A DNA stretch of 64,000 nt from an uncultured virus (IMG/VR IMGVR_UViG_3300048609_000030) (taxonomy: Duplodnaviria; Heunggongvirae; Uroviricota; Caudoviricetes). Shown here one piece after another: positions 39,049 through 59,304 of the stretch (position 1 is the first letter of the stretch; each line of letters starts with the position of its first letter). A program made the position numbers and the translations under genes. Location of the stretch: the IMG/VR virus record IMGVR_UViG_3300048609_000030; one strand, given 5' to 3'. The notes beneath the pieces are model-generated. The model made no database searches. It was not told the DNA's origin and saw only the letters and a list, made by a program, of their open reading frames with translations.

Positions 39049-41475
39049 ATGAAGCCGAAGCAACCAATGGAATTCGACCAGGCCAAGCTACAGAACATGA
39101 CCGAGCCGATCACGGTGCGTGTTCAGAAGATGCGGGGTAACCAACCGTCAGGTATTGAAATTCCCGGCAAAGGAGAAGGTGCTGCTCCTGGCACCAACTG
39201 GTCACGGGAAGAGGTACTCAGGCTTGAAAACTGGCTACTGACTGAGTGGTCAGGCGGCGGTTTCTACCGTTTCTCGGTTACCGACGCTAACGGTGAAACG
39301 ATGCGTTGGGAGAGCGCCTTCGACCCACGTGTCTACCCGGAAAAGGTGCCGCCTAACGCGATGAGCGCAGCACAAATTCCTAACCCGCAGATCTTGCCAG
39401 CGGGTGTTCCCGTCAATCCACAACTTCAGATTCAGACACCGTCAGCACAAGCCATTCCGTCACAAGGAGTTCCCTTCGGTATGAACTCATCATCTTGGCC
39501 TCCTCCTGCAGCTACTTTTGGTTACGGCAGTCAGGTTGTAGTTGGACCGCAACAGCAACCTCAACAACAGCAACCAGTTTTTCAACAGCAGATGCCGATG
39601 CAATATGGTTGGCCCTACGCGACGCCATATTCTCCGTACGGAATGCCAGGAATGTCAGGAATGGCACCAGCACCAGCAACACCTGTACGGGATCGTGGCG
39701 ATCGAGATCGTTGGCTTGAAATGCAGTTGCGGGAACGAGATCGAGATCGTGAAACCGAACGCGAAGAGCGTCAACGGCAAACAGAACGGGAAGCCGAACG
39801 TCTTCGTTACCAAGAAGAACTGCGTCGCAAGGATGACGAGCTTCGCGCACGCGAGTTGGCGCAACGAGAAGCAGAGCACAAAGCTGGCCTTGAACGGCAA
39901 CAGCAACAACATGCTGCTGAAATGGCCAAGATGGTCGACGAGATTCGGCGTCTCGGTGAACAAGGTCGGGACAAGGAAAACGATGAGGTTCGTCGTGCGC
40001 GGGAAGAACAAGCACGACTACAGCGCGAACGCGAGCGCGATCAAATCAATCAACAGTTCCAAACGGTCAATCAACAGTTTCAAACTTTCCAACAAAGCAT
40101 CGCACAAACCCTCACAAAGGTAACCGAGACTCCACGTGAGGATCCCAAACTGCGGACGCTGGAAGTGGAGATCCAGAAGGCGCGGGAAGATGCTCGGATG
40201 CAGGCTGAACAGCAACAGCGCGAGCGTGATCGGTGGGAGAGTCAGCGTCAGCAAGAAGCGCTGGTACAACAGATGCGGGAACAAGAAAACCGCACTGCCT
40301 TGGCGCTCAAGGAAGCAACTGCAACTCGTAGCGACCCAATGGTCGAGTACATGAAGGAGTCGGCACGCCTGAGCCAAGAGCAGTCGCGGATGCAGTCTGA
40401 GAACATGCGGGAGATCGCTCGTATGCAACAGGCGTCGCAAGACCGTATGGCTGCGCAGATGATGAACCCGCAGCAGCTAGCTTCGATCATCCGTGATTCG
40501 GGTAGTGGTACCGATATGCTGATGAAGAACGTGGTCGAGACGTTCTCTGGCATCTTCGGGACGATGCGTAGTGCGATCGAACAGGTCGCTCAACTCACTG
40601 GTGGAGCACCCGAACCACCAGCCGTACGTATTGTCGAGCAGGGGATCCAGAAGGCTGGCGCCATGGCCGAGCGCTATTTCGGCATGAAGGCGCAGCAGCA
40701 GCAAAATGAAGCACAGGTTGCAGCAGCCAGGTTGCACGGTGAAGCACAGGTTCGGGCCGCTGCCTACCAAGCGCAAGCTGCAGCAGCAACAGCAGCCGCA
40801 CAACAAAACAGGCCGGTTGAATTCGCAGCGGCAAGTACCGCACGTAAGACTAACGGGCAGTCGGGACCTGAGAAAGCAGCAGCACAACCGAGTAGCGGTC
40901 TTGGAGGTGCAGCACCAGTAGCTGCAACACCACCACCGCCCGTGGTTAGACCACCCAAACCTGGAAAGCCTGCAGCGCCCACACCGCCTACCGACCTCGA
41001 CGATGGGTTGTCGGACCCTGTTACAGGACAGACGCTTCCCGCCGCGAAGCCAGTAGCCAAACGAGCTGGTAAGACCGACGAAGAGTGGTTTGGGGCGGCA
41101 CTCGAATCCGTAACGCATCTTAGAACAGGTGTAAAGACGTTCCTGTCGAATCTAGCCAAGATCCAAACCGGTGAAGAAGAGGGGGTGCTTGACGAAGAAG
41201 GTAACGTCGTTGGGCTTGAGCCGAACGCGGCAATTGACGCGATCCTGAAGGGGATCAACTACGTCAGTGTAAACGGGATGGTGATTCCAGCCTTTGAGGA
41301 GCTGTTCAAGCAGGGTCGGTATGCTGAATTCTTGGATGTCTTGTTGCCTGGTGCACACCAGGGGTACAAGGACGACTGCGTGAAGATCCTAACCGAAGAG
41401 GTTGATGTAACACCACCATCTGACGTTATCGACGTAGAGGGCGTAGAGATAACAGACCAATCCGCTGAGGCGTAG
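39049..41475 (+). CDS. Large Q/E/R-rich coiled-coil protein, possibly virion-internal (start approximate)
   Basis: ~810-aa ORF with globular ends, a long coiled coil and Pro/Ala linkers. Confidence 0.8.
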   Translation: MKPKQPMEFDQAKLQNMTEPITVRVQKMRGNQPSGIEIPGKGEGAAPGTNWSREEVLRLENWLLTEWSGGGFYRFSVTDANGETMRWESAFDPRVYPEKVPPNAMSAAQIPNPQILPAGVPVNPQLQIQTPSAQAIPSQGVPFGMNSSSWPPPAATFGYGSQVVVGPQQQPQQQQPVFQQQMPMQYGWPYATPYSPYGMPGMSGMAPAPATPVRDRGDRDRWLEMQLRERDRDRETEREERQRQTEREAERLRYQEELRRKDDELRARELAQREAEHKAGLERQQQQHAAEMAKMVDEIRRLGEQGRDKENDEVRRAREEQARLQRERERDQINQQFQTVNQQFQTFQQSIAQTLTKVTETPREDPKLRTLEVEIQKAREDARMQAEQQQRERDRWESQRQQEALVQQMREQENRTALALKEATATRSDPMVEYMKESARLSQEQSRMQSENMREIARMQQASQDRMAAQMMNPQQLASIIRDSGSGTDMLMKNVVETFSGIFGTMRSAIEQVAQLTGGAPEPPAVRIVEQGIQKAGAMAERYFGMKAQQQQNEAQVAAARLHGEAQVRAAAYQAQAAAATAAAQQNRPVEFAAASTARKTNGQSGPEKAAAQPSSGLGGAAPVAATPPPPVVRPPKPGKPAAPTPPTDLDDGLSDPVTGQTLPAAKPVAKRAGKTDEEWFGAALESVTHLRTGVKTFLSNLAKIQTGEEEGVLDEEGNVVGLEPNAAIDAILKGINYVSVNGMVIPAFEELFKQGRYAEFLDVLLPGAHQGYKDDCVKILTEEVDVTPPSDVIDVEGVEITDQSAEA

Positions 41476-41485
41476 GAGACAGACC

Positions 41486-42211
41486 GTGACTATGGAAATA
41501 GTGCCACCAGAAAACAGCGAAGAACAAGACCGTGGTTTTGGAAGAAAGACTTTGACGTTGCCAAATGGGACAATCATACGTCTTCAGGAGGCAACGTGGC
41601 AAAGCCTGAGATCTGCGTTTGTGGTTAGTCCGTGGAACGACGTACACGATTGGCCGGTTTTCTCGTACGGGTCGAGTGAAGAAGTGCCCGGAAAAAAAGG
41701 TTTGACGGCCACGCGTGTACACACAAACATTCCTAGATCGGGCATGGCAGGACTCCCGATGGATTGGGAAATGTTGGTGTATCGTTGGCGCGCTACAATC
41801 AACGCAGTTTTGGAACCTGTTGTACTTGATTGGGCTGCAGAGACCGCTGTCAACTTCTGGTACAACCAGAAACCGTACGCGTCGGCCACGCTCGCAGACC
41901 TTTTGTTGTCAGGGGCTCGTACAGTCGGGTCGGATACCGGAGACCTGCCGGTTCACATGCGCAACAACCTAGGTTTTGAGGTACAGGTTCAAACGCCAAA
42001 CGAGAAGGTGTTAACTAAACTGCACAACTGGTTGCGTGGTAATCCTTCTGAAGCTGTACAGGCTGCGTTGTCTGAGTTAGACACAATTGCACGAATGCAA
42101 GGAGGACCGGTCGTGGCTGCAATACGACACGTACAGGAAACACTCGCAGCAGGGCGCGACCTGACATGTTGGATCCACCTCGAAGGCCCTCTCATCCGAT
42201 GTGTTGTGTGA
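41486..42211 (+). CDS. Paralog of the candidate capsid protein at 58499
   Basis: TLTLPNGT...TRVHTNIPRSGMAGLPMDWEMLVY...LPVHMRNNLGF...GPLIRCVV. Confidence 0.75.
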   Translation: MTMEIVPPENSEEQDRGFGRKTLTLPNGTIIRLQEATWQSLRSAFVVSPWNDVHDWPVFSYGSSEEVPGKKGLTATRVHTNIPRSGMAGLPMDWEMLVYRWRATINAVLEPVVLDWAAETAVNFWYNQKPYASATLADLLLSGARTVGSDTGDLPVHMRNNLGFEVQVQTPNEKVLTKLHNWLRGNPSEAVQAALSELDTIARMQGGPVVAAIRHVQETLAAGRDLTCWIHLEGPLIRCVV

Positions 42212-42815
42212 ACTCTGCAATGGTTGAAGAGCTGTACGTTCGCGTCTTGACCATGGACAGCAACGGCATGTGCTGCTTGTTGCATCAGGTCGACGCACGT
42301 GATCCTGTTGTTCTCGCCAAAGCGGCGCGGGATTGGGCGACCGAGACAGCCAAGTTGTTACAAGACAAGGAGCCACAACAGCAGAGACTATTCATAAGAT
42401 TGATCACCTTACCTACTACAGATCTGGAACACCGAATCGGGCGAGCTTGGTGGGACATCGGTGATCCCAGAGAACTACTTGTTGCGTACGTCGACAAGCT
42501 TAAAAGGAGTTAGAGTGAAAATGAAACTTCAGACTACACAAGAAGCTGTGCTAGTTGGTGTCGATTTTGACAATCGATCCATTCAAATTCGCCTTACCAA
42601 GGAGGAGATAGAACGGCAGAAGCAAGAAGTAACTGATACGGCAGAAGAGAGGGGACGTTTTCCAGGTAGCTTCTACCCGCCGTTTCCTATCGTCATGGTA
42701 GTAGCCGGTCACGGAAAGGAAGAAATGTCGCCAGCGCAGCTCCGCGAGTTGGGTGGACTGCTAGGCGCCAAGGTTCGCTACACAACTGTGATTGAGATCG
42801 ACAAACCGTAGTCTG

Positions 42816-43202: not shown

Positions 43203-43213
43203 TGGGTGTCTCC

Positions 43214-43546
43214 TTAGTCGTCGTCGCCGACTTCTTCACGAGCGATGCGCTCTGCGGCGTACCAGACCATCAGGTTTTTGAAGCCGTCAAGGTTGTCGGC
43301 CATGTCTACACGGTTGAAACCTGCAACAAACGCTAACGTGTTTGCAGCTCCGTAATCCTGGGCATCCTCGTAGGCCATGTCCCAGATCTCTTCGCCGTAC
43401 TTGTCAAACAATTCGACGGTGTCCTTGGTCCACGTCAACCCTTGCCAACCGGTATCAGCGCCGTGATTAGCAAGGTCTCGCAGTTCGCCTTTGGTGAAGT
43501 TGTTCTTCATCCAAGCACGAAAACTCTTTGCACGTGGCTTTGCCAT
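43214..43546 (-). CDS. Small acidic phage protein
   Basis: AAAGGAG RBS; DLANHGADTGWQGL..DTVELFDKYGEEIW. Confidence 0.65.
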   Translation of the reverse strand: MAKPRAKSFRAWMKNNFTKGELRDLANHGADTGWQGLTWTKDTVELFDKYGEEIWDMAYEDAQDYGAANTLAFVAGFNRVDMADNLDGFKNLMVWYAAERIAREEVGDDD

Positions 43547-43822
43547 GATGTTCTCCTTTAGAACCAAAAACGTGATGGTGAGATACGTGGCCATCTTCCG
43601 CGAAGAACGGCTTTGACCTGCTTCTCAGCCCACTTGACACCTCTACCACCAGGTCCAAACGCGTATGCTTCAACACCGCGTGTGATGAAGTCAGCCTGGT
43701 TCAAAGACAGACAAGGAAACTGTTTGCGCAGCACGTAGTTGGTGGGTCGGTTGCGCATGACGAAATCGACAATTTGAGGAGCGTCTGTGGACACACATGA
43801 TGAGGATTCCGTCTTTTTCATC

Positions 43823-44280: not shown

Positions 44281-44883
44281 CTATCGGACGAGAGATCTCG
44301 GCGACCACATTTCATCCGTTACGTAACCACCAACCTTACGGGCAGCAGCTTCTGCAGCAGTTTTGGAGACATATGTGGCAACTCTTCTTTGAGGCTTTCT
44401 CTTTCCCTCCACCCTGCGCCACACCACATAGTTGACCTCAGCTGCTTTGAGCTGTTTCTGTTTTGGTTTGCCGTACCCTTGGTACAACGCTACGGCTGTG
44501 GTCGTTACAGGCGCCAGGAAACCTAACGCACCCCAACCTGCCGCGGAGGCGCCATCTTCGTTGTTGCGTTTGTAGCCGTGAACGCCGTCGACGATGGCGA
44601 GTGGCAGACGCAACATTGAGTGGAGGGTGAGCACGATGAAGCCGACCGTCATCCACTTCAATTGTGTGTCTGTAAGGTTGACGTCTGGCACTTCGTTTTG
44701 CCCGAGGCCCATCGCACCTGAGATGCCGTAGCTCGGGCACGCACCTGGCAGATCAACCGTGACCGTCTCGAACTTGCCGGTGCCGAACGGCGGAGGCTGT
44801 GGGTAGAACTGCCAGTCCGGGATGATGCCGAGGCCGTTGAGTTGTTCAAGCATCGGGAAGCCTAGTAGTCTGTCACGCATCAT
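44281..44883 (-). CDS. Membrane protein, HGYxR paralog 1
   Basis: HGYKRN..AGWGALGFLAP..QGYGKPK. Confidence 0.75.
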   Translation of the reverse strand: MMRDRLLGFPMLEQLNGLGIIPDWQFYPQPPPFGTGKFETVTVDLPGACPSYGISGAMGLGQNEVPDVNLTDTQLKWMTVGFIVLTLHSMLRLPLAIVDGVHGYKRNNEDGASAAGWGALGFLAPVTTTAVALYQGYGKPKQKQLKAAEVNYVVWRRVEGKRKPQRRVATYVSKTAAEAAARKVGGYVTDEMWSPRSLVR

Positions 44884-45202
44884 CGTCTCCTTGGGAGTCT
44901 TTAGGCTGGCTGTAGCCTTGAACAACACTAGCAATTGGCGTTAATACGGGAAAGAGAAAACCGAGTGCGGCCCAACCGGCGGTAGCACCCCAATTGCCGT
45001 CGTGGCGGTAGTAGCCGTGGATGCCCGCTACAACAGCACCGAGAGGCCGAAGGAACTGCATCAGGAGGACTGCTTTACCGATAGCAGTACGTTCGAGTTG
45101 GCTAAGCAGATCTTCGGCAGAGCTTCCCAGACGGTACTGTTCTAGTCCCATCATGCAAGTCCCACAAGGGAACCCGAGACCGCTAGTGTTGACAGTCAGC
45201 AT
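44873..45202 (-). CDS. Membrane protein, HGYxR paralog 2
   Basis: HGYYRH..AGWAALGFLFP..QGYSQPK. Confidence 0.75.
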   Translation of the reverse strand: MLTVNTSGLGFPCGTCMMGLEQYRLGSSAEDLLSQLERTAIGKAVLLMQFLRPLGAVVAGIHGYYRHDGNWGATAGWAALGFLFPVLTPIASVVQGYSQPKDSQGDDDA

Positions 45203-45203
45203 G

Positions 45204-45584
45204 TTACGCTTTTGGCTTTCCGAAACCTTGAGCTAAGGCGATCGCGGGGGTTAAGATAGGCGCCAACCCTCCAAGAAGACCCCATACAATAGCCCAACCT
45301 ACACTATCGTTGCGCTTGTATCCGTGATACGCGCTCGCGGCCACAGACAAAGTTGCTGCGATTCCCCATACGGTTGGCCAGATTGACGTTGTTGGTTGGC
45401 CGAACTGGTTGAGTCCCATGAAGTCGATTGGTGGCTGACCAATGGTGCCGTCGCCGCCCATCGTCCAAGACGAACCGAGTGTTCCGTCTCCACCCATTGT
45501 GTGGGAAGATCCAAGAGTTCCGTCTCCACCCATCGTGTGTGAAGAACCTAGCCCGTTTCCTACATTCTGCGATAGTAGCATCAT
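45204..45584 (-). CDS. Membrane protein, HGYxR paralog 3, with 3x LGSS(H/W)TMGGDGT repeat
   Basis: HGYKRNDSVGWAIVWGLLGGLAP..QGFGKPK; 36-bp tandem repeat at 45444-45551. Confidence 0.75.
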   Translation of the reverse strand: MMLLSQNVGNGLGSSHTMGGDGTLGSSHTMGGDGTLGSSWTMGGDGTIGQPPIDFMGLNQFGQPTTSIWPTVWGIAATLSVAASAYHGYKRNDSVGWAIVWGLLGGLAPILTPAIALAQGFGKPKA

Positions 45585-46613: not shown

Positions 46614-47216
46614 ATGCTTCAAGCAACTATCCGTGATTCACGCGGCCGTGTAGCTCTGCTAGGCGGTCTAGGCTTTTCCAACACAGGCGTGGTGCAAAGC
46701 TCTGGCGAAGCTATGAGTAGCGGCCGGAACGCTGCTGCGGGCGGAATCGTCGACACAGCCAACGCTACGGCTGCTGATGTTGCACACAACAAAGGAATGC
46801 CGGTGGCAGCACGCGGTGCTGGTGAGACGGCATGCAACATCTTCCACAGCTCGTCTGTCGAGGCCGGTACCGCGCTCGCGACCGAGACACCAAGCCAGTA
46901 CACACAAGGTGCGGCAGCTGCCGCTGCACGGGGTACGAGCTTCTGCAGTCAGGTACGGCCACCACATCCGTCACAGCCGTGGGCACATGCTGCGAGCTTT
47001 GTATCGCCGTGGGCGGCGCCTGCGGTAGCTGCACGCTATCAACGGCAGTACAATCCCTTCACTGTATATACCTCGGATAGCCCTTATCTGACAACGCAAG
47101 GCTTTGGCGCTACCGACGACCCGATCTGGAAGAAGTGGTGGTTCTGGACTGCTCTTGGTGGGACTGCGCTTGCTGCTGCAGGCACTGCGACCTACTTCGT
47201 GCGCAAATCACGTTAG
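46614..47216 (+). CDS. Putative virion membrane protein
   Basis: GGAGG RBS; GGLGF; C-terminal PIWKKWWFW-TM-basic tail. Confidence 0.7.
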   Translation: MLQATIRDSRGRVALLGGLGFSNTGVVQSSGEAMSSGRNAAAGGIVDTANATAADVAHNKGMPVAARGAGETACNIFHSSSVEAGTALATETPSQYTQGAAAAAARGTSFCSQVRPPHPSQPWAHAASFVSPWAAPAVAARYQRQYNPFTVYTSDSPYLTTQGFGATDDPIWKKWWFWTALGGTALAAAGTATYFVRKSR

Positions 47217-47228: not shown

Positions 47229-47519
47229 GTGGCTCAAATCTACGCAACCGTTTGCGGGCTTCGTGTTCCCGTAACCCAGAAGCCCACAGGGTATGGCGTT
47301 GGTTATGAGTACGATGTAGGCCACACCTCACGTGATATCGGAACATACGCCGAGGTCGAAAAGAAAACCGCGAAAAAGCTTGCCCAAACATTCTCTACAA
47401 CACCGCCTAGACCAGGACACGAGGTGCAACTTTGTGAAAAGGTTTGGTTAGTTCGACATCGTTCAGGTCGATTCGAGATTGACCGTCGTGCCTCTGGCGG
47501 TCTCAAAGGCCGTCGTTGA
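47229..47519 (+). CDS. Small basic protein, tandem paralog A
   Basis: AQIYATVCGLRV...RFEIDRRASGGLKG; AGAAAGGA RBS. Confidence 0.75.
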   Translation: MAQIYATVCGLRVPVTQKPTGYGVGYEYDVGHTSRDIGTYAEVEKKTAKKLAQTFSTTPPRPGHEVQLCEKVWLVRHRSGRFEIDRRASGGLKGRR

Positions 47520-47533
47520 TAGAAAGGATCGTT

Positions 47534-47824
47534 GTGGCTCAAATCTATGCAACCGTTTGCGGGCTTCGTGTTCTTGTGAAGAATCCTACGCGCTACGGAG
47601 GCGGCAATATCTACTCTGGCGCGGTGGACATTGGGACGCACGCCGAGATTGGGAAGAAGACGGCGACAAAGCTTGCACAAGCTTTTTCTGCGACGGGTAA
47701 GGCCAGGCCTCCTAGACCAGGATTTGAGGCGCAGCTTTGCGACAAGGTTTGGCTGATCAATCGTGGAGGCCGCTTCGAGGTTGACCGACGTGCTTCTGGC
47801 GGTCTTAGAGGTAGAGGTCGATGA
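47534..47824 (+). CDS. Small basic protein, tandem paralog B
   Basis: AQIYATVCGLRV...RFEVDRRASGGLRG; AGAAAGGA RBS, GTG start. Confidence 0.75.
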   Translation: MAQIYATVCGLRVLVKNPTRYGGGNIYSGAVDIGTHAEIGKKTATKLAQAFSATGKARPPRPGFEAQLCDKVWLINRGGRFEVDRRASGGLRGRGR

Positions 47825-47990
47825 TGCGTAGGCTCGGTGAGGAAACAGCCCAAAGTGCTATCGGCCCGAAAACCAGAAACACGATTCTAATCCTCGGGTT
47901 TGGACTATCAGCAGCGCTGCTTCTAGTGACCGTTTATCCGCGACAACAATAATAGATCGTAGCTACGATCTCGTGCTAGTTTGGGTAGTG

Positions 47991-48659
47991 ATGATTACCT
48001 TCACACGAAGTGTGGGAACGAGTCCAGGCACCACCACGTTGGTGCTTGAAAACCAACAGTCAAATGGGCTCGGCATCCAGCAATGCTGGCCTGTTCCTGG
48101 GCCTATTCACCTTCCACAGCCGACGGCCAGGCCTCAGATACCCGAAGCTGGTCCACGGGTTGTCTACGATCCGTACGGGTCGACGGCGGAGCTGAACAAC
48201 GGGCTTGGGTTTGTGCTTTCTCCGTGGGAGGTCAACCGGACGTTGCCTGGTGGACCACCCTACGAAAAGCCTTTTGATCCCTTCTACACCACACGTGGTG
48301 AACAGGGCTGGTACTACGATACGCAGTTTGGAGAGATTCCAACCGACGCAGAGTACGCCAAGAACATCTGTTACACACCGGTCAAGTCGGGCTGGATCTA
48401 CGATCAGAAGCGCGGCTACGTTCCACCACCGTGGGTTCCACCGGATGGGTGGCAACCGACAGCTCCACAGTATGGACCGCCGACGTCACTACACGGCGCT
48501 GAACTAGGGCTACAGCAAGCAGCGGGTACTTTGGGAGATGTTGCTGAAGAGCTTGCGAAACACCAGCGGCGGCAGTTCTATCTGTCCATCGTATCGACGG
48601 CCGCAATCGCCAGCGTTGCATTGGTGACAATCATTCAAGCGCTGCGGAGCAAGGACTGA
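47991..48659 (+). CDS. Pro/aromatic-rich protein with C-terminal TM (start approximate)
   Basis: NGLG twice; TM before the stop. Confidence 0.65.
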   Translation: MITFTRSVGTSPGTTTLVLENQQSNGLGIQQCWPVPGPIHLPQPTARPQIPEAGPRVVYDPYGSTAELNNGLGFVLSPWEVNRTLPGGPPYEKPFDPFYTTRGEQGWYYDTQFGEIPTDAEYAKNICYTPVKSGWIYDQKRGYVPPPWVPPDGWQPTAPQYGPPTSLHGAELGLQQAAGTLGDVAEELAKHQRRQFYLSIVSTAAIASVALVTIIQALRSKD

Positions 48660-49292: not shown

Positions 49293-49751
49293 ATGAATCA
49301 AGGTGTGCCAGAGAATGCTAGTCGAGTAGTATCTGGGTTGTACCAGGGTGGACGACCGCAACCAGGACAGCTCGCATTCGACGTTCTGGTGTTGATGGCC
49401 AAAGAGTATCAGCCAACTGCTGCCAACTTCCCCGGCGTCAAACACATACTGTACGCACCAATCGAGGATGATTTCTCGTACGCGTCTCCTGCGGAGAAGG
49501 TAGCAATCAAGCAAGCTGCTACTTTTGTTGCTCAAGCTCTTCGTGCCAAGCAACGGGTGCTTGTCACCTGCAACATGGGACTCAACCGCTCAGGTGTAGT
49601 AAGTGCGTTAGCTATTTGTAGGAACAACCCAAAGCTACCTGCTGATGTTGCAATTCGTCTTGTGCGTGAAGCACGTGGACCACAAGCGCTTACCAACCCT
49701 GTGTTTGAGAAGTTGGTCAAGGAAAGCAAGGTGAGTCATGGCGCTCAATGA
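49293..49751 (+). CDS. Dual-specificity/PTP-family phosphatase
   Basis: VLVTCNMGLNRSG (CX5R), PIEDD acid loop, AIRLVREARGP.AL.N..F. Confidence 0.9.
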   Translation: MNQGVPENASRVVSGLYQGGRPQPGQLAFDVLVLMAKEYQPTAANFPGVKHILYAPIEDDFSYASPAEKVAIKQAATFVAQALRAKQRVLVTCNMGLNRSGVVSALAICRNNPKLPADVAIRLVREARGPQALTNPVFEKLVKESKVSHGAQ

Positions 49752-50160
49752 AACAATAGCACGCGTCACACGCAATTCGATCTCGTTCTCGATCGTGCAG
49801 GATGGTGGAGCTGGGACCACCATGACGTTGGCAAATAGTGATTTCGTCGGTAATCTGTCTGGGTATGGTCTAGGTGGACCATTGCTCAATTTGTTACAGA
49901 CGAACTTCGCGCCGAACAGTCAAGCTATTCAACGTGCGGTGCTTCTTGGTGATGCAAGCGGTCTCGCTGCTGCGGCACGGGATCTATCCAACTTTCCACA
50001 CTGCAATCTGATCCTCACCAACATGACAGTTGCTGGGTGGCGTGTGGACGCAGATGTAGATGCTGTGTCGTTGGGACGCGGCGAGTTGAACATTACGGGT
50101 CCAGCCGGTGCCGGTCGGACGCTTGTTACGTTAGAGTTCCGCCACAGCTACAACAGATAA
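49738..50160 (+). CDS. Beta-rich hypothetical protein, possibly structural
   Basis: 140 aa, Gly/Ala/Thr-rich. Confidence 0.6.
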   Translation: MALNETIARVTRNSISFSIVQDGGAGTTMTLANSDFVGNLSGYGLGGPLLNLLQTNFAPNSQAIQRAVLLGDASGLAAAARDLSNFPHCNLILTNMTVAGWRVDADVDAVSLGRGELNITGPAGAGRTLVTLEFRHSYNR

Positions 50161-50612: not shown

Positions 50613-50907
50613 GTTGACAACCTATCAAAACGCGTTCTGGTCGTCTAGCGGATTATCAGTCGCCGAATACTAGGTCAACAAGGCGCCACGCAAACAAGGC
50701 GCCGACGATCAACACACTACCGATGCCGACGTAGTAGACCGCCCGTCCCGCGTTGAGCATCGAATCGACGCTTGGTAGATCGATGCCTAGTTCACCGAGT
50801 TGTGGCTGACGTCTATGGTAGACCGTCGGGCAGGCCACTGGAGTGGCTGTAAGCATAGATATTTAATACCATTGATCACAGCTACGATCTACTGCTAGTT
50901 TAAAGAC

Positions 50908-51297
50908 ATGTCGAAAAAAGCCTCACGGTCATTGGGCGAACCTGATGACGTACATGTTGCCGCAGCTCAACACGCAATCGCTGAAGCCTGGAACGATCTA
51001 GAGCGTATGCCACCAACATGCTATGGCGGCATCCGAATGGCGTCTCGTGCGTTGGCGAACGCTGAAAAAGGACTGGCGCACGCTTGGGCTATCAGCTACG
51101 GCGCTCGTGCACAACACAACGAGCTGTTTGGGTTGGGCAATAAGGCCACGAAGGCAGCCTGGGACACAATCCAGTTCTTCGGAAGTGTTTGCGAGGCACC
51201 CAATCGTGCCGCCGCCGATCGTCCGCTGTTCTCTCGCGTAAAGTACAAAAAAGAGTTGGAAGCTCGTGAGAAGAAGACGAAGCGAGGCCGTCGATGA
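50908..51297 (+). CDS. Hypothetical protein
   Basis: Promoter-like TTGATC-18-TAGTTT upstream; basic termini. Confidence 0.65.
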   Translation: MSKKASRSLGEPDDVHVAAAQHAIAEAWNDLERMPPTCYGGIRMASRALANAEKGLAHAWAISYGARAQHNELFGLGNKATKAAWDTIQFFGSVCEAPNRAAADRPLFSRVKYKKELEAREKKTKRGRR

Positions 51298-51683
51298 GCT
51301 ACGTCAGTAGACAACTAGCAAAGGACGCGGCTGAGGGTGAGCCTAAGCTACCGACCTACAAGACCGTAGCAGAGGTCTTGGAGAGAAAGAACGGGTCGGG
51401 CATCCGATTGGTAGGATGGACGGTAGCCCGTACCTTCCTGATTATGCCTGGCGTGCTCGCTGTTGGTGTTGATCCCAAAAAGGCGTTTGTTGGGTCGTTG
51501 ATCTCATCGAGTCTAATCAGTGTGCTGACACTGGTGCGTATCTACAATGCGGGCTTCGAGGAAGACGCAGAGCGGTGGGCACAGATGAAACGTGCGCAGC
51601 GGCTTGAGCGTTGGGAGACAAACAAAAAGCAGCTTGAAGGCCGTGTTGCACGTCGTGCACAACGGAGGCGCCGGAAGCCTTAG
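51294..51683 (+). CDS. Membrane protein with basic tail
   Basis: ATGA overlap; two hydrophobic segments. Confidence 0.6.
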   Translation: MSYVSRQLAKDAAEGEPKLPTYKTVAEVLERKNGSGIRLVGWTVARTFLIMPGVLAVGVDPKKAFVGSLISSSLISVLTLVRIYNAGFEEDAERWAQMKRAQRLERWETNKKQLEGRVARRAQRRRRKP

Positions 51684-52473
51684 ACCTGCTCAAAGAGGAC
51701 ATTATGAAAAAGAGAAAGTTCATACGGCGTAAACCGTCCCGCTACATAAATCAGGAGACTTGCGTGCGTGTGGGACAGCATTTGTTGAAGGTCGCAGCCA
51801 AAGAGGAAGGATTACAGAAGGTTTTAAGACAAGCAAAAGTAGCATTGGATCATCAGATCAAAAGAGCGTGCGAAGAGGATCCTCTTCGGATATCTAGAGC
51901 TGATGCTGCTTGCGCGCTTAAATCGAAAACACGTGCTGCAATTGAGATGTGTGCTCCTGACATCTCTCGTTGGGTGCATTAACTATGGCTAAAATCAAAG
52001 GAACATTCTGTGAAGAGAAGCTCGCATCGAAGAGTGCCTTCGACAAGCGAAGCTTTCGGTGGAAGAAATCGGGTCGGGCCTGGCTACTGGTAGGTTGCAA
52101 AAAGGGCGCTTGGAACGCCCGACGCGATCAATGCAGCGTAGGCACACAGGCGTATGTGATTCTTCGTCCGGCACACAACGCACGTTGTCCTGTTGGTACA
52201 CATCGTTTGACCAAAGGCTAGCTATGCTTGTATTGGAAAGCCCTCGACTACTTAACACACCAGCTGCCTTCGACCCAGCGGCTATGAGCGCAGCTATAGG
52301 ACTAGCACCAAACTCTTGGTCGACGTTGGGTGGTCCCGATGTTACTGCTTTCCTCAAAGAGCAGAATATTGTAGTCGCTGTAGTGTTGGTGTTAGGGATG
52401 TCGCTGACCATTGGAGCAGCGCTTGGAACAGCTGCTGTTTGGGCCATCCAACGTGCGCGTGGTGAGGAAAAAC

Positions 52474-52827
52474 ATGCTTAGCTTCAGGGATTGCGGTCTT
52501 GCATTCGATGCTAACGGTCAGCCGCTTCCAGGATGCGTCATCCCATACAACCAACCCGCAAATGGTGTTGGTTACGTGATGATCGATCCAGGAACACCCC
52601 TGCCACACGTTGTGGCGGCGCCACAATTCTCGTCTGGACTCGGCCAGGATGAAACCGAGACGGAGACTCCATTACCAGCTACAACCCCGTCAGAACCTCC
52701 ACCAGAACTGACAAGTAAGCAGTTGTTCTCGCAGTTGTATCAAAAGAACAAATGGACCTTCTGGATTGGCGGCGGTGTGGTCAGTCTTCTCGCGCTTAGT
52801 GGCTTGTACGATTTGGTCAGACGCTAA
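52474..52827 (+). CDS. Putative virion membrane protein
   Basis: SGLGQ, Pro/Thr linker, C-terminal TM. Confidence 0.65.
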   Translation: MLSFRDCGLAFDANGQPLPGCVIPYNQPANGVGYVMIDPGTPLPHVVAAPQFSSGLGQDETETETPLPATTPSEPPPELTSKQLFSQLYQKNKWTFWIGGGVVSLLALSGLYDLVRR

Positions 52828-52828
52828 G

Positions 52829-53908
52829 CTAGAAACACACGCGTGGCTTGTTCAGCTGACGATACGGACGGCCGCTGATAGGCGTGGAGCGACGGCGCTT
52901 GCGTACTACAATGGCTGCTGTCAGCCCGCCAAGAGCCGCTGCGATTCCTCCGTAAATCAGATAACGCGTCCACGGAACAGTAGAGGGCACAGCAGGCTCT
53001 TGTGGCTTCGGTGGTGCTTCAACTGGTGTCTCAGCCGGTGTCTCAGCAGCTGCCTCGTTCTCCGCTGCAGCAGTTGAAGGAGCTGAGGGCGCGGGTGCTG
53101 GTGGTTGTGTTGTAGCTGGAGGCTGGTAAGACTCCCCGTCTTCCTCTTCTGTGTAAGCTTCCGAGGGTGCTGATTGTGGCGCCGTTCTCGATTCCGTAGT
53201 TGTGGTTGTAGACGGTGGAAGCGGTGCCGGTATTGGTAGCGGGGTTCTGGACGTCGACGACGTCGGTACCGGTACTGGACTAGGAATCCTGGACGTAGTT
53301 GTCGGAGGAGGCGGAGTCGGGGCCGGAGTTGGTACCGGCGCTGGAATAGGAATCCTGGACGTGGTTGTCGGAGTTGGTGCTGGCGTTGGTACTAACGACG
53401 CAGTTCGTATTGGTGTTGATGTTGGAATTGGTGTCGGTGCTATGATCGTTTTTGTAGTCGGTAGAGTATACGTGGTTGGGGTTGGTACGGCTGTAGAAGT
53501 AGGAATCTGTGTTATGGGAGCTGGTATTAGTGTTTGGGTAGGAACGTATTTAGTTTCTGTTGGGATCTGTGTTTGAGTGGGTGTGATGCTAGGTGTTAGA
53601 GGCGTAGGACTCGGCGTCGTTGACGTTGTGGGCAACGGTGTTCTGGTTACGATCAATGGAGTTTCGGGCGGCACCTCCTCGACAATTACAGGCTGTTGTG
53701 GCGTCAAGGTAGGTTGAAACGTTTTTACAGGCTCCAGCGGCAGCGACGGTTCAATTGGTAGTGGTTCACGAGCAACGGGCTGCCAAACAGTCTGTACTGG
53801 CGCAGGTGCAACGGGTTGCAACACAGTCGACGCTGTACGGGCAGTCGTAGTCGTAACGGCGATTGGAGCCGTAGTTACAGCATCTCTAGTAAATGTCGCG
53901 TAGAGCAT
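52829..53908 (-). CDS. Pro/Thr-rich mucin-like stalk protein with C-terminal TM
   Basis: Repeats of TTTSRIPxPxPVPT; TM YLIYGGIAAALGGLTAAIVV then RKRRR. Confidence 0.75.
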   Translation of the reverse strand: MLYATFTRDAVTTAPIAVTTTTARTASTVLQPVAPAPVQTVWQPVAREPLPIEPSLPLEPVKTFQPTLTPQQPVIVEEVPPETPLIVTRTPLPTTSTTPSPTPLTPSITPTQTQIPTETKYVPTQTLIPAPITQIPTSTAVPTPTTYTLPTTKTIIAPTPIPTSTPIRTASLVPTPAPTPTTTSRIPIPAPVPTPAPTPPPPTTTSRIPSPVPVPTSSTSRTPLPIPAPLPPSTTTTTESRTAPQSAPSEAYTEEEDGESYQPPATTQPPAPAPSAPSTAAAENEAAAETPAETPVEAPPKPQEPAVPSTVPWTRYLIYGGIAAALGGLTAAIVVRKRRRSTPISGRPYRQLNKPRVCF

Positions 53909-54169: not shown

Positions 54170-54499
54170 TTAACCTTCCGTTTTTGAGAACTTCTTCTCT
54201 AGTGCGGCGTCAGCTGCGGCGTCGTTGCTACTAGCTGCCGACTTGAGTACTGCAACTTCGGCCTTTGCAGCCTCGGCCTCAGCTTTGGCCTTCTTGCTGC
54301 CGGCTACAACTGCGGCACTACCTTGAATCGCTTTACCGCCCGTATAGATGGTGGCCATAAGAACGGCAAAGTCCATCCATTGTTGTTCGGTAACGCGGCC
54401 AAGAAAGACGAAGACAGTAGCGATGATGAGAGGAAGTGCGTAACCGAACACGCCCTTCTCACTGTGGAAGAAGTCTTTGAGTACTTGTAGGCTAAACAT
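54170..54499 (-). CDS. Holin-like 2-TM membrane protein
   Basis: Two TMs, YTGG motif, charged tail; AAGGAG RBS. Confidence 0.5.
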   Translation of the reverse strand: MFSLQVLKDFFHSEKGVFGYALPLIIATVFVFLGRVTEQQWMDFAVLMATIYTGGKAIQGSAAVVAGSKKAKAEAEAAKAEVAVLKSAASSNDAAADAALEKKFSKTEG

Positions 54500-54513
54500 G
54501 AGTAGCTCCTTGA

Positions 54514-54846
54514 TTACCGAGGGAATGTTTTGCTTTTGTCTCGTGGTGCCCAAAGGCGCCAAAAACAGCGATCGGCTGCGTTTTTGGCAGAGCCAAGATA
54601 GTCTGTCAGTTCTCGTTTTTGTGTAGCGTGTTGGCGTTGAAGATCCTTACTCATACTTTCGTAGTGAGTAAGGGCCCTGCCCGCGTGCACAGCACCATCT
54701 TTTAGCCAGTCAAGACTGAGCCGACAGTCTCCAATCGTCACAGCATTGTGCGCACTTTGAAGCGCCACCATTGCTTTACGTGCTTTGTCGTCGAATTGGG
54801 AGGCGTGGGTGGCTGATACACTGCCGAGTCTTTGTCGCTTCTTCAT
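54514..54846 (-). CDS. Hypothetical protein resembling the 50908 product in layout
   Basis: Basic N-terminus + LG...H, helical core with central Cys. Confidence 0.55.
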   Translation of the reverse strand: MKKRQRLGSVSATHASQFDDKARKAMVALQSAHNAVTIGDCRLSLDWLKDGAVHAGRALTHYESMSKDLQRQHATQKRELTDYLGSAKNAADRCFWRLWAPRDKSKTFPR

Positions 54847-55403: not shown

Positions 55404-55746
55404 GTCACTAACCTAGCAAATCTATTTTCGTTCGTAAACAGCACTGCGGAGGCGCTCGACAAGCGTTCCGCTGGCAGCATGATGCAACAGCTCTGTCGCT
55501 AAGCCAACCAGCTCACCAACAGTCAGGTTGCAGCCGCGTTTCACGATGTTTGGCCGGCCATAACCACATGCTTTGCAACGGACGACTTCGTCTGTTGCCT
55601 CGATAGTAGTTGAACGACATCGCGGACAGATCTTCGGGACTAGAAACTCAGCTGGCAGGATGTCTAGTCCCTGCTTCGACAGCTGAGACTTGATGAGCAT
55701 AGCTACCAGCCAGACGTTCGGCGGGATCTTTTTCGTTGCCCATGAT

Positions 55747-56346
55747 TCATCCATCAGTGTTCATCCTCGTGAACGGATCGGGTCCGTATGTCTGTTCGAG
55801 CACGTCGATTCTAGAAGCCTCGTGTAGCCGTTCGTAGAGATAGGGTGGGTAGAACCGCAGCTGTCGTCCAATACGCAGGCAGGGTAGTCCGGCTTGTACG
55901 TAGCGTCCAATTGTAGCTCCGCTGAGTTTCAGTGTCGAAGCTAGTTGTTGGACTGTCAACAAGGGTCGTGGTTCTTGGTAGTCGTGCGGTGTGGCAAGCC
56001 ACGGCGCCAGCGCAGGATCAATGCCGTCCTCGTCGGGTGTGGGCGTTTTCACCGTTTGCGGGTCTTTGACGCGCGCTTTTATGTAGTCGAGTAGGCGGTT
56101 ATCTGCGGCAAACCAGTTGCCGTGTTGGCGTAGTTTGTCGAAGCGTTTGTGTAGACGACGTTCCAGCTTACGGGGCGCGACGCTTGGTATGACACCAAGC
56201 AACACGATTTCGTAGGGAGATGCATCTCGAAGCGCTGTGATCCGTTTTGCAAGTGACCACGAGGCGCTGATTCTGATTGGACCTGTGTTACCGGCTTGGG
56301 CGAAATAAACAAGTCCAAGCCCGTCCAGATGGGAAAGCGTCGTCAT
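55747..56346 (-). CDS. T5orf172/GIY-YIG-like domain fused to an excisionase-like HTH
   Basis: VYFAQA..GPIRI..LERRLHKRF..GNWF; LLTVQQLA..GLPCLRIGRQLRF. Confidence 0.7.
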   Translation of the reverse strand: MTTLSHLDGLGLVYFAQAGNTGPIRISASWSLAKRITALRDASPYEIVLLGVIPSVAPRKLERRLHKRFDKLRQHGNWFAADNRLLDYIKARVKDPQTVKTPTPDEDGIDPALAPWLATPHDYQEPRPLLTVQQLASTLKLSGATIGRYVQAGLPCLRIGRQLRFYPPYLYERLHEASRIDVLEQTYGPDPFTRMNTDG

Positions 56347-56585
56347 CCGCTTTTCTTGCGGTAGTAGGTCAACACATCTTTCGGAACGAAGCGTAGACGC
56401 CCTGCGATTACTAGTCGTGGGAAGTCTTGCGAACGGAGCTGACGGGACAGTGTTGACGTACTGATTTGAAGAAACCGCGCCAACTGCTTCGGTGTCATTG
56501 GGCGGTCCCACAACGGATGTACCTCAGCGGTGATGGGTTTGCCAAGACCGCTTTCCGTTTGAGGTTTCCCAGCTTTCTTACTCAC
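56343..56585 (-). CDS. Excisionase/HTH_17-like DNA-binding protein
   Basis: MTPKQLARFLQISTSTL..FPRLVIAGRLRF. Confidence 0.75.
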   Translation of the reverse strand: MSKKAGKPQTESGLGKPITAEVHPLWDRPMTPKQLARFLQISTSTLSRQLRSQDFPRLVIAGRLRFVPKDVLTYYRKKSG

Positions 56586-56748
56586 ATATACGTTTTATCA
56601 GGTTCAGCAAAACACCGCAAACAAATGCGCTCTAGTGACGCCAATCTACGTTAGGTGCTAACCACTATCTAACGTCACCATGAGCTAACATACTGAAAAA
56701 ATTGATAATTTAGTTGATCACAGCATCGATCACTTGTACGTTTGGTCC

Positions 56749-57411
56749 ATGCTTCACATGACCTACGTTCGACCCGATCGCGTGATTCGCACGGCCGTTC
56801 TAGAGCCTACCGCCGAAGGGTACCAACCCGTTCGTGCTGCTCAAGCCGTTGCGGATCAGTTTACACGCATCTACGGGCCGACGGTCTACGCCAACAAGAC
56901 GGTGGCAACCAGTCAAGGCCCGATGACGGTGGTTGCTGCCGAACAGGCAAAGTCTGCGGAGCAGGCCGTCACCTCGATGGCCAATTCTTTTGCGAACGGT
57001 GAATCTGTTCGTATCAGCGATGCACAGGGTCGAGTTGCTGTTGTCCATCCAACAGGTCAGAAGGCGCCTTTTTGGACACGCGCGGTAGAACAAGCCCGGG
57101 CATTGGCCCAACGGCTTCGTGCAAAGGCTCAGCTAGGTGAAGCTGGCCCAGGTGAGATTCCGGTGGCGTACGGCTACGCACCACGGTTCAACCGTTCGGC
57201 GCAAGCGGCCAACACGATTATGCAGGGTGCTGATCAGCCGCCACAGGGTTTGTACCTTCCTGCGCAAGCTGGTGCCGCACGTGCTGTGCCGAATCAGCTT
57301 ACCGCTGAGTATCTAGCACGCACGATTCCTGGTGGTGTGCCCGCGATGGTCAACGTACGTGGGCAAGCCAATGCGCTCGATTGGTTCCATCGCGGAGGGC
57401 GGTACTACTAA
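56749..57411 (+). CDS. Ala/Gln-rich putative structural protein
   Basis: First gene of the operon after TTGATC-17-TACGTT. Confidence 0.7.
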   Translation: MLHMTYVRPDRVIRTAVLEPTAEGYQPVRAAQAVADQFTRIYGPTVYANKTVATSQGPMTVVAAEQAKSAEQAVTSMANSFANGESVRISDAQGRVAVVHPTGQKAPFWTRAVEQARALAQRLRAKAQLGEAGPGEIPVAYGYAPRFNRSAQAANTIMQGADQPPQGLYLPAQAGAARAVPNQLTAEYLARTIPGGVPAMVNVRGQANALDWFHRGGRYY

Positions 57412-57686
57412 TGCCGAGCGTGTTCACCATACAGGGTCCGCCGCTCGACACGGTTGAGCGTCTCGAACGGAGACGGCAGGGACACGAAACGCAAGACACC
57501 AAAAAGCAGATGGACGTGCTTTGCGATCTTCGCCGTGAACTTTTTGCTCGTGCCGACAAAGTTCGTCAGGGACCGCGCTATCGAGCTTATCGGACTGCGG
57601 GAGATGTCATTCAACGACTTGTTGAGGACTATCCCGGAGGTCGCGATTACTTCTGGAGCAAACGTTGCGGAACAAAACAACGTTGA
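57411..57686 (+). CDS. Small hypothetical protein
   Basis: TAATG overlap with the previous gene. Confidence 0.55.
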   Translation: MPSVFTIQGPPLDTVERLERRRQGHETQDTKKQMDVLCDLRRELFARADKVRQGPRYRAYRTAGDVIQRLVEDYPGGRDYFWSKRCGTKQR

Positions 57687-57743
57687 TGACACGTAGCGCT
57701 CAGCGCTGCTAGCGCTGGCCAACCCAAACATAAGGAGACAGCA

Positions 57744-58406
57744 ATGGCAGACCTGGGAGCTTACAACCTTGAACTTATGGATTCGGACAAGTCGGTAGAC
57801 CTGTTCGGTCTTGACGAGTTCGGCAACCCGACTGGTATGGACCAGATCTGGGGCGCAGTCATCGGTGGCGGCCTTGGTACGGGTACCGCGATTGCGGTTC
57901 GCGCACTCGCTGGTGAACCGGCTGCTGGCAAGTTCGACTGGAAGAAATACTCCGAGGGTGTCGGCTTCCTGGTTGGCGGCGCTGCTAGCGGTCTGATGAT
58001 GGCGTTCGAGGGTACTCGTGCAGCGGGCACCGCAGGATTGGCAGTGGCCTTCCTGACCAACGGTCTCCGTCAGCTCGAAAGCCTTTTCAGTGAGAAGTCG
58101 ACTGGGCTTGGTGCAGCGACCATCGAACGGCTGAACGGTGTCGTGATGGAACGTTTGTCGCCTGGGACCAGGAACGTCGGCCTCGGCATCCCAAGTGCCC
58201 AGTACGTACCTGAAGCCTACGGCACCATCCCTGGCGTTTACGGCACTCCTGTTGCCGGTACTCAGATCTCCACCGGTCAACCACCGGTCGATCTGATGGC
58301 GCCGCAAAACCTGCCGCAGAGCGCGTATCAGGTCGAGCTGATGGGCGGTCCTGCTCTCAGCGGTCTGGGTATGCACTACGGCGCGACCCTCTTCGGCAGC
58401 GACTGA
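57744..58406 (+). CDS. Gly-rich virion membrane protein with multiple GLG motifs
   Basis: TAAGGAG RBS; three hydrophobic segments; strong codon bias. Confidence 0.75.
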   Translation: MADLGAYNLELMDSDKSVDLFGLDEFGNPTGMDQIWGAVIGGGLGTGTAIAVRALAGEPAAGKFDWKKYSEGVGFLVGGAASGLMMAFEGTRAAGTAGLAVAFLTNGLRQLESLFSEKSTGLGAATIERLNGVVMERLSPGTRNVGLGIPSAQYVPEAYGTIPGVYGTPVAGTQISTGQPPVDLMAPQNLPQSAYQVELMGGPALSGLGMHYGATLFGSD

Positions 58407-58498
58407 CAGAAGAACAACTAACCGTCGGCCGTGAAGCCGACAAGTGAAAACAACCGGTCGGTGACGACCAGAAGAAAAACCTTTCAAGGAGGCTTATC

Positions 58499-59206
58499 AT
58501 GCGCGGAACAGTCGGTGTAGCACCTGGTACCACTACCCTCACCCTGCCTGACGGCACTGCTGTTGCCCTCGCGGACTGGATCGACGACAAGCTGTATGGC
58601 ACCGTCCAGTTTGCGAACGGTCAAGCCACGCCGATCGAGGCGTTCTCGGCTGGCCGTAGCCAGGCGATCCCTGGTGGTACTCGCGTTCAGACGCGGGTTG
58701 ACACTAACATCCCACGTAACGGCGACTCGGGTCTGCCGAAGGACTGGGAGATGTTGGTTTACGGCTGGGGCCTCAAGATGACCCGCGTCTGCCGTCCGCA
58801 GACTGGTCAGGCACAGCCCGTTCTCGGTGATGGCACTGGTGCGCTCTCCGACCCGCCGCGTCTTGCGACGCTGTTCGGTGTCGACCGTGTGGTCTTCATG
58901 AGCTACGAGTACAACGCGAAGATCTACACCTCGGGTGTCATGCAGGACTATCCGCAGGGACACGGCTACAGCGTGTTCAGCACGAACACCTCGTTCGAGC
59001 TGGCACAGAACGGCATCCCATCGCCGCGTGACCGGCTGGCGCTGGTGCTACCGGTCCACGAACGCGAGAATTTGGGCTTCAAGATGATCTTTCAGCCCGA
59101 GGCTGCACTGATCATCGCACAGCCCGCCAGCGATGGTGGTGCGAACCTCACCTTCGCGGACATCAAGACCTATAAATACGGCCTCATCAAAAGGACAGTT
59201 GTGTAG
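58499..59206 (+). CDS. Candidate major capsid protein (possible single jelly-roll)
   Basis: AAGGAGG RBS, strong GC3 bias, followed by a terminator; beta-rich; TRVDTNIPRNGDSGLP; paralog at 41486. Confidence 0.6.
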   Translation: MRGTVGVAPGTTTLTLPDGTAVALADWIDDKLYGTVQFANGQATPIEAFSAGRSQAIPGGTRVQTRVDTNIPRNGDSGLPKDWEMLVYGWGLKMTRVCRPQTGQAQPVLGDGTGALSDPPRLATLFGVDRVVFMSYEYNAKIYTSGVMQDYPQGHGYSVFSTNTSFELAQNGIPSPRDRLALVLPVHERENLGFKMIFQPEAALIIAQPASDGGANLTFADIKTYKYGLIKRTVV

Positions 59207-59261
59207 CAATTTCGAGCAGATAGCTGCTGAGATAGTACTACTGTCCGTCTGTATCCACCTT

Positions 59262-59304
59262 GAAGGCCCAACACCAGAAATGGTGTTGGGCCTTCGAGTT
59301 TTTC
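59262..59304 (+). terminator. Rho-independent terminator
   Basis: GAAGGCCCAACACCA-GAAA-TGGTGTTGGGCCTTC (15-bp stem, GNRA loop) then GAGTTTTT. Confidence 0.85.

Follow-up and report, generated by a model that had tools for sequence, protein, structure and literature searches.

A putative virion gene block encoding a predicted jelly-roll capsid protein in a family of large viruses with bacterial-type hosts

The stretch of DNA analysed here (64,000 nucleotides; hereafter, the window) derives from the uncultured virus IMGVR_UViG_3300048609_000030 of IMG/VR. Approximately 13 kb of its source contig, which probably measures 77,433 nt, lies outside the window, which limits the negative results obtained with the window itself. 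A block of genes at 39031-59298 is proposed to encode the virion of a non-tailed virus, and the gene of main interest within it is P0001 (58499-59206, + strand). Its product is a protein of 235 amino acids (aa) that is predicted to form a single jelly-roll and is a candidate major capsid protein (MCP). An AAGGAGG box sits 7 nucleotides (nt) 5' of the P0001 ATG, and an intrinsic-terminator-like hairpin (59259-59298, + strand) was identified directly 3' of the gene, formed by an 18-bp stem, in which 10 pairs are G-C, and a TTTTT tract after it. This hairpin ranks first among the terminator-like sites of the region. An earlier reading of the DNA, made from its letters alone (the sequence-only reading), had delimited this region as 39049-59304 and had credited the open reading frame (ORF) at 58499 with a strong ribosome-binding site (RBS) and its own terminator; both are in place.

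P0001 is a conserved core protein, and its gene the most conserved one, of a family of related contigs. Relatives of the protein number 460 in a collection of 5.8 billion proteins; among the matches listed (120 of the 460), identities range from 67 to 90%, the contigs reach at most 232 kb, and none of the 120 carries a Pfam domain or a name. A HMMER scan of 1.84 billion representatives (clusters at 50% identity) gave 124 hits at E ≤ 0.001. The gene is carried by sixteen IMG/VR contigs of 39-221 kb and is present in all 79 metagenome loci, with a median identity of 69%; one 1.6-kb metagenome fragment (L121) is identical to P0001 over residues 1-105. Judging from organism labels and contig names, the family has been sampled from soil, groundwater, sediment, mat and bioreactor assemblies. 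A tblastn search of 50,697 phage records with P0001 returned nothing at E ≤ 0.001, nor at E ≤ 10, and searches with PADLOC and NCBIfam gave no match for P0001 or for P0002, P0248, P0249 and P0004, which are also encoded in the block.

P0002 (41486-42211, + strand; 241 aa) is paralogous to P0001 but divergent, with three helices inserted at residues 173-220. The two proteins align by BLASTP at E = 7e-19, with 62 of 194 positions identical (32%) and 24% gaps, which confirms the paralogy proposed in the sequence-only reading. The four motifs on which it had drawn are all present in both translations: TLTLPDGT in P0001 and TLTLPNGT in P0002, TRVDTNIPRNGDSGLPKDWEMLVYGW and TRVHTNIPRSGMAGLPMDWEMLVYRW, LPVHERENLGF and LPVHMRNNLGF, and the C-termini GLIKRTVV and GPLIRCVV, respectively. 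P0002 is a real, conserved gene, though facultative in the family. In five relatives, whose lengths are 77-86 kb and of which three are complete, the P0002-family profile picks up the P0001 orthologue only and no P0002-type gene, and the P0002 family has 15 members in the protein collection as against 460 for P0001, being about 30 times rarer. A 92%-identical copy occurs on another contig; a search of IMG/VR with P0002 alone found no relative, and a language-model search gave no usable match for it.

Second copies of the capsid-type gene were nonetheless identified in larger genomes. A complete relative of 129 kb (G006) encodes a full-length copy, 33% identical to P0002, located 16 kb from the canonical capsid gene, and a genome of 124 kb (G007) has a shorter, divergent second copy 58 kb from its canonical gene; the distance between P0001 and P0002 in the window is 17 kb. 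A metagenome contig of 64,414 nt (L106) carries, at 8526-12970, the gene of the membrane protein, then a tandem array of three nearly identical capsid-type genes (about 241 aa each) and lastly two tandem paralogues of 150 aa. Duplication of the capsid gene is therefore recurrent in the family, but a fixed pair of MCPs is not. The sequence-only reading had pictured an obligatory two-capsid system like that of sphaerolipoviruses, and this part of it was not upheld, given the 17 kb between the two genes, the lack of P0002 in all five relatives and its 15 matches against 460.

Alignments taken from the HMMER scan comprised 46 P0001-type sequences (A1) and 37 P0002-type sequences (A2); pattern scans were run with single proteins, alignments A1 and A4 being too variable. 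Confident AlphaFold2 models were obtained for P0001 (predicted local distance difference test score, pLDDT, 85.7; predicted template modelling score, pTM, 0.78) and for P0002 (pLDDT 88.5; pTM 0.81). In both, eight main strands follow each other in the same order, and a single helix precedes strand five. In P0002 the three-helix insertion precedes the last strand, where P0001 has longer and less confident loops. Foldseek comparison of either model with the PDB gave no match at E ≤ 0.001, the lists above this threshold being dominated by jelly-roll virus capsids, and the BFVD gave one weak match only, to an uncharacterised protein. When the models were aligned to 48,161 PDB representatives, a 178-residue capsid chain of Sulfolobus polyhedral virus 1 (SPV1) came first for both P0001 and P0002. 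In a second structural comparison, covering Foldseek's best 991 chains for P0001, the four top-scoring chains were all capsid proteins of tailless viruses with an internal membrane: those of SPV1 (6oj0_A; score 8.3, root-mean-square deviation 3.5 over 142 aligned residues), HHIV-2 (6h82_b; 7.0), SH1 (6qt9_g; 6.7) and P23-77 (3zn6_A, VP16-VP17; 6.5). Non-viral jelly-rolls also occur in the match lists, namely endospore appendage Ena proteins, GOLD domains and nucleoplasmin. The A1 profile, searched against PDB sequences, found no solved capsid protein and no relation to VP16/VP17, and the language-model search gave a weak lead to PM2 P2 and PRD1 P3 (0.75-0.77). P0001 and P0002 are thus predicted to be jelly-roll beta sandwiches, and the fold call of the earlier reading agrees with these models and with their best matches.

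Searches of Pfam and PHROGs with 91 ORFs of the window identified no family of capsid, portal, terminase or tail proteins, and the sequence-only reading too had recognised no terminase, portal or tail gene in the region; here and below, absence was assessed by profile searches with these two collections. Two labels of this type arose outside the region. One is the match of an ATPase, P0003, to phrog_2666 ('terminase large subunit'), which was rejected as evidence of a terminase: the protein is of HerA type and has no terminase-fold match. The other is a NUDIX protein that resembles the NUDIX part of a 'portal protein' PHROG. As the window covers just 64 kb of its source contig, a complete relative (G002; 85,650 bp, 90-nt terminal repeat) was annotated as well, and among its 140 ORFs there was no match to a terminase, portal, HK97 capsid, tube, sheath or tape-measure protein. 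Profiles of Terminase_6N (PF03237), TerL_ATPase (PF03354), Phage_capsid (PF05065) and Phage_portal (PF04860) each matched none of five further relatives and did match the control genomes. A look for an HK97 MCP, a portal and a terminase, which the sequence-only reading had recommended, hence yielded none in the window, in G002 or in the five further relatives.

What G002 does encode is a fusion of PolA with a uracil-DNA glycosylase, an SNF2 helicase, a Sak4-like ATPase, an SSB-like protein, ThyX, a dUTPase, an integrase, an endolysin-type protein and methyltransferases; the lysis genes of the family are of the M23 and peptidoglycan-binding types. A protein with a pilin-like N-terminal methylation motif was also seen in G002. 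Two pectate-lyase-type proteins of this genome (705 and 736 aa) match tail-spike PHROGs in their enzymatic part only (L018-L025) and on a tailless particle might act as vertex spikes or depolymerases. As an alternative, the family could be one of tailed phages, or of another known virus type, whose head, portal and terminase genes have diverged beyond recognition or lie in the part of the contig outside the window, with P0001 and P0002 as jelly-roll accessory proteins serving in decoration, cement or receptor binding. The large terminase is the best-conserved gene of phages. Neither it nor any other hallmark was matched in the 140 ORFs of G002, and the four Pfam families stayed at none of five with positive controls. 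The pectate-lyase matches are confined to the enzymatic beta-helix, and such proteins are not restricted to tails. Furthermore, P0001 is conserved above every neighbour, which would be unusual for a decoration or receptor-binding protein. We regard this alternative as unlikely.

P0003 (34142-35887, - strand; 581 aa) lies outside the region 39049-59304 and is a HerA/FtsK-type P-loop ATPase, a candidate packaging ATPase or accessory helicase. It matches DUF87 of Pfam (4e-7), phrog_2666 (2e-19) and HerA chains of the PDB (1e-15), and its C-terminal part resembles the winged-helix-type families HTH_45 and HVO_A0261_N, both below cut-off. Residues 2-239 show 25% identity (E = 5e-6) to the 'packaging ATPase; P9' of phage Jorvik. 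The closest full-length relative (36% identity, 84% coverage) belongs to a tailed phage with a terminase, a portal and a capsid of its own, where it is encoded among non-structural genes. The sequence-only reading had advised a search for an FtsK/A32 packaging ATPase, and the outcome was divided: an enzyme of HerA type is present in the window, but it is not conserved, with a homologue (26% identity) in one of five relatives by sequence and DUF87 in none of five (four complete), although all 14 control genomes were matched by that profile. No FtsK/HerA-type packaging ATPase was found in G002. Given its rarity, the lack of DUF87 among the relatives and its kin in a terminase-bearing phage, P0003 is not likely to be the motor of the family. 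From these profile and sequence comparisons, we conclude that the family lacks a conserved packaging ATPase; P0003 may act in the window virus alone, or as an accessory helicase.

The distribution of P0002 and P0003 also bears on the proposal of a giant virus related to Helvetiavirae, with P0001 and P0002 as two obligatory MCPs in mixed pseudo-hexameric capsomers and with P0003 pumping the DNA. The window genome does contain two jelly-roll paralogues and an ATPase. However, the P0002-type gene is absent from five of five relatives and about 30 times rarer than P0001, and the distance between the two genes is 17 kb in the window, 58 kb in G007 and 16 kb in G006. Four of the five relatives lack P0003, and all five lack DUF87; its closest full-length relative resides in a tailed phage that has a terminase; and no sequence relation to VP16/VP17-type proteins was found. 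Such a giant relative is therefore considered improbable. A still smaller chance is given to the possibility that the shell is built from an unrecognised double jelly-roll protein of the PRD1/PM2 type encoded elsewhere, with P0001 and P0002 in penton or minor capsid positions. The ORFs of the window and of G002 matched none of the double jelly-roll capsid families in Pfam and PHROGs, and the ATPase that usually accompanies double jelly-roll capsid genes is not conserved. The conservation, RBS and terminator of P0001 are those expected of the most abundant protein of a virion.

Directly upstream of P0001 lies P0248 (57744-58406, + strand), which encodes a Gly/Ala-rich membrane protein of 220 aa and has an AAGGAGA RBS. 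A P0248-like gene was identified in 16 of 16 IMG/VR loci and in 50 of the 51 metagenome loci with at least 1.5 kb of upstream sequence (median identity 37%). The ORF overlapping it on the opposite strand (57408-58487, - strand) was taken as a shadow frame. P0249 (45802-46557, - strand) is a membrane-anchored, transglutaminase-like protein with a cysteine-protease fold (Pfam Transglut_core, 3e-6; transmembrane (TM) segment at residues 35-53) and no match among PDB sequences. Its homologues are present in 16 of 16 IMG/VR loci and in 25 of the 27 metagenome loci with at least 8 kb upstream (median identity 48%).

P0249 provides a link to a cultured virus. [quoted passage not shown] Three papers (PMC6260650, PMC6356626, PMC4958249) describe SSIP-1 as a tailless icosahedral virus with an internal membrane, a T=49 capsid of about 100 nm and a circular genome of 44 kb, and possibly with two types of single jelly-roll capsid protein. 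Below E 0.001, none of the remaining 97 ORFs of the window matched SSIP-1; a six-frame search of its genome with the A1 profile gave nothing, and hhalign comparisons of A1 and A2 with 20 SSIP-1 proteins reached a probability of at most 2.6%.

The first gene of the block, P0004 (39031-41475, + strand), directly precedes P0002 and encodes an 814-aa protein rich in Q, E, R, A and P that is probably a coiled coil. Its N- and C-terminal parts are conserved, with homologues in G002 and three other relatives (L008, L012, L014), and it had no match in Pfam, PHROGs, the PDB or NCBIfam; that it acts as a scaffold or determines size is a guess. Small membrane proteins with TM segments, three paralogues in tandem, are encoded at 44281-44934, 44873-45202 and 45204-45584 (all - strand), and share a C-terminal HGY(K/Y)R..GW..LG.L.P....QG.(G/S).PK; the one at 45204-45584 is conserved in 8 of 16 loci. 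C-terminally anchored proteins with TM stretches are encoded at 46614-47216, 47973-48659 (P0250) and 48666-49262 (all + strand), of which P0250 is conserved in 8 of 16 loci. Two tandem basic paralogues of about 100 aa (47229-47519 and 47516-47824, + strand; isoelectric points (pI) of 9.9 and 10.7) begin ...AQIYATVCGLRV....

Further small membrane or basic proteins are encoded at 50656-50856 (- strand), 50908-51297 (+), 52411-52827 (+) and 54170-54562 (-). A small membrane protein with two TM segments and a basic tail (51294-51683, +) is conserved, its homologues being found in 3 of the 16 loci and in G002, and is followed by a small basic protein with 24% K+R (51704-51982, +). A Pro/Thr-rich protein of 359 aa has a C-terminal anchor (52829-53908, -). 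No NCBIfam match was found for P0250. A giant protamine-like protein is not among the basic proteins seen, which are all small, and many of the membrane proteins of the region have their anchor at the C-terminus.

TM stretches were called with a crude Kyte-Doolittle window of 19 residues, after 11 overlapping ORFs judged to be shadow frames had been dropped. Of the 32 ORFs retained in the region, 11 had a stretch at a threshold of ≥1.4, 10 at ≥1.6 and 9 at ≥1.8; the Gly-rich hydrophobic stretches of 46614-47216 and 57744-58406 were recognised by eye alone. In the rest of the window, 9 of 52 ORFs had such a stretch at ≥1.8 (Fisher p = 0.28 against the region), so the richness in membrane proteins is real but not specific to the block. 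The sequence-only reading had spoken of more than ten small TM-anchored proteins around the capsid genes; about ten hold, whereas an enrichment special to the region does not. The tripeptide GLG occurs 17 times in the 5,786 aa of the block and 4 times in the 11,340 aa of the other ORFs, a frequency about 8 times higher in the block, and is often seen near the N-terminus of the anchored proteins (...SGLGF..., ...NGLGSS..., ...GGLGFS...).

Downstream of P0001, relatives commonly encode a protein of 165 aa (22 of the 28 loci with at least 4 kb downstream; median identity 44%), which was not found in the window. In a relative with the same inserted methylase-like gene as the window (L015), this gene lies 8.5 kb downstream of the capsid gene; the equivalent position would fall beyond base 64000, and the block thus probably continues past the end of the window. 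Window ORF 49738-50160 has no similarity to the 165-aa protein, and its C-terminal ...VEFRHS motif is common to the 150-aa paralogues of L106 (pairwise E = 3e-4 over 22 residues).

Genes of non-structural appearance also occur within the block, namely those of a DUF7222 protein (43214-43594) and a dual-specificity phosphatase (49293-49751; Pfam 5.5e-9). Homing-endonuclease-type genes are found in the block (55747-56511; T5orf172/MUG113 with a helix-turn-helix (HTH) domain), just after the capsid gene (61057-62040; LAGLIDADG) and further upstream (28029-28703; HNH), and part of the rearrangement seen in comparison with G002 is probably due to them. Upstream of the block, an HTH protein with an extremely acidic Asp/Glu tail is encoded at 37625-38122, and an Arg/Thr-rich ORF with a pI of 12 (37282-37779) is probably a shadow frame of its acidic repeat.

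The window also contains what is, judged by its sequence features, a virus-borne CRISPR-Cas12-like locus (11576 to ~16800), in keeping with the CRISPR-Cas12 system mentioned in the sequence-only reading. It consists of a gene for a protein of 781 aa (11576-13921) whose C-terminal domain is of the Cas12f/TnpB type (2.4e-7 in Pfam; matches to TnpB and Cas12f2 of NCBIfam below cut-off), and of an array after it (14098 to ~16800) in which a 36-nt repeat, present in at least 35 copies, recurs at a spacing of 71-74 nt. The ORFs called within this array are spurious.

Taken together, we favour, with moderate confidence, the interpretation that 39031-59298 is the virion block of a large non-tailed double-stranded DNA virus of bacteria, with a jelly-roll shell over an internal membrane. 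The roles assigned here draw on fold, conservation and gene context. P0001 would be the MCP, its capsomers forming an icosahedral outer shell over an internal lipid membrane, and P0248 would probably be co-transcribed with it up to the terminator at 59259-59298. The anchored proteins, among them P0248, the three paralogues of 44281-45584 and P0250, may organise the membrane and link it to the shell. P0249 would be a packaged virion enzyme common to SSIP-1, either a maturation protease or an entry hydrolase. P0002 would represent a later, lineage-specific duplicate of the capsid gene, most likely in a specialised or minor position of the shell, such as a vertex-adjacent or decorated capsomer. 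DNA could be packaged by P0003 in the window genome, or by a motor-independent route such as has been proposed for SPV1-like viruses.

Another alternative is a plasmid-like or other mobile element without any particle module, whose jelly-roll and membrane proteins build, for example, a cell-surface or secreted structure. In its favour, the evidence on the family is genomic, and jelly-rolls were matched in non-viral proteins (Ena, GOLD and nucleoplasmin) too. On the other hand, IMG/VR files the relatives as viral, and six of these contigs, of 77-129 kb, have terminal repeats; the genomes encode an integrase, endolysin-type proteins, and replication and nucleotide-metabolism enzymes of phage type; and gp34, the homologue of P0249, is a virion protein of SSIP-1 according to its record annotation. 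An element of this kind is accordingly thought very improbable.

The hosts are judged to be of bacterial type, from the lysis genes and from metagenome-assembled genome (MAG) labels that are mutually inconsistent. Related contigs occur in MAGs labelled Gemmatimonadota, Actinomycetes and Polyangiales. In one chromosome-level MAG record labelled Gemmatimonadota (L033; 4.74 Mb), a capsid gene of 76% identity is found together with its upstream partner; the locus, of 65.7% G+C, has a 100-N gap and could be a provirus or a scaffolding artefact. No host is named, since the MAG phyla disagree and the first locus has this gap.

A broader possibility, put forward only tentatively and with the odds somewhat against it, is that these contigs represent a high-rank, undescribed lineage of bacterial viruses with tailless, membrane-containing particles that have single jelly-roll shells, contain 77-221 kb of DNA and are filled without an ATP-driven motor, repeated capsid-gene duplications serving to build or vary very large shells. 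Filling might then proceed, for example, by the assembly of shell and membrane around condensed DNA. The relatives' contigs span 77-221 kb, in line with the claim of the sequence-only reading that the virus is much larger than known viruses of such build; the genomes of the cultured tailless membrane-containing viruses compared here (Jorvik, SPV1 and SSIP-1) are of about 9-44 kb. If true, these particles would carry several times more DNA than any cultured virus of such build, which would change the capsid architectures that count as able to carry large bacterial virus genomes.

Large prokaryotic virus genomes are generally assumed to be those of tailed phages, and the taxon labels of the relatives are mostly Uroviricota; automatic pipelines would then be mislabelling such contigs as tailed phages. 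The family would also offer a test case for motor-independent packaging, and would be the counterpart, in bacteria, of the archaeal SPV1. Within the literature collection searched, viruses of this kind were not found to be described. To the family picture the window adds a helix-bearing paralogue that recurs in larger genomes, a non-conserved ATPase like P9 of Jorvik, and a large CRISPR array beside a Cas12-like gene.

Several known viruses share features with this family. The Rhodobacter phage Jorvik is tailless and membrane-containing, and its P9 matches the ATPase domain of P0003. Its genome is 8.8 kb, its record annotates a P2-type MCP, and P0003 differs from P9 in its long C-terminal extension and in not being conserved in its own family. 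To our knowledge, a packaging ATPase is universal in Helvetiavirae. Members of Helvetiavirae (Sphaerolipoviridae, Simuloviridae and the Thermus phage P23-77 group) have two capsid proteins, both obligatory, and genomes of 16-30 kb, according to published accounts (PMC12642351, PMC12643093, PMC10848233). The window genome has two predicted jelly-roll paralogues, the genes of which are not adjacent; in the window family, by contrast, only one of the paralogues is a constant feature, a conserved ATPase is lacking and the capsid proteins were not found to be related in sequence to those of Helvetiavirae. SSIP-1 shares gp34, homologous to the conserved transglutaminase-like P0249, but has no protein resembling P0001 or P0002, has an annotated virion ATPase (gp40) and has a genome about half the size or less.

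The capsid chain of SPV1 (Portogloboviridae, PDB 6OJ0) is the best structural match to the models of both P0001 and P0002, with an aligned identity of at most 10%, the matched chain being VP4 or VP10. The shell of Portogloboviridae consists of single jelly-roll hexamers and a separate penton protein. SPV1 infects hyperthermophilic archaea and has a circular genome of about 20 kb without replication genes of its own, whereas the genomes of the family described here are of 77-221 kb and encode peptidoglycan-directed lysis proteins and their own replication proteins (PolA, helicase). The family thus appears to work most like SPV1, and also like SSIP-1 and Helvetiavirae, but it is a member of none of them: it is set outside those groups by the lack of detectable capsid sequence homology and of a conserved ATPase, by its facultative paralogue, by its bacterial-type hosts and by genomes that are 2-10 times larger.

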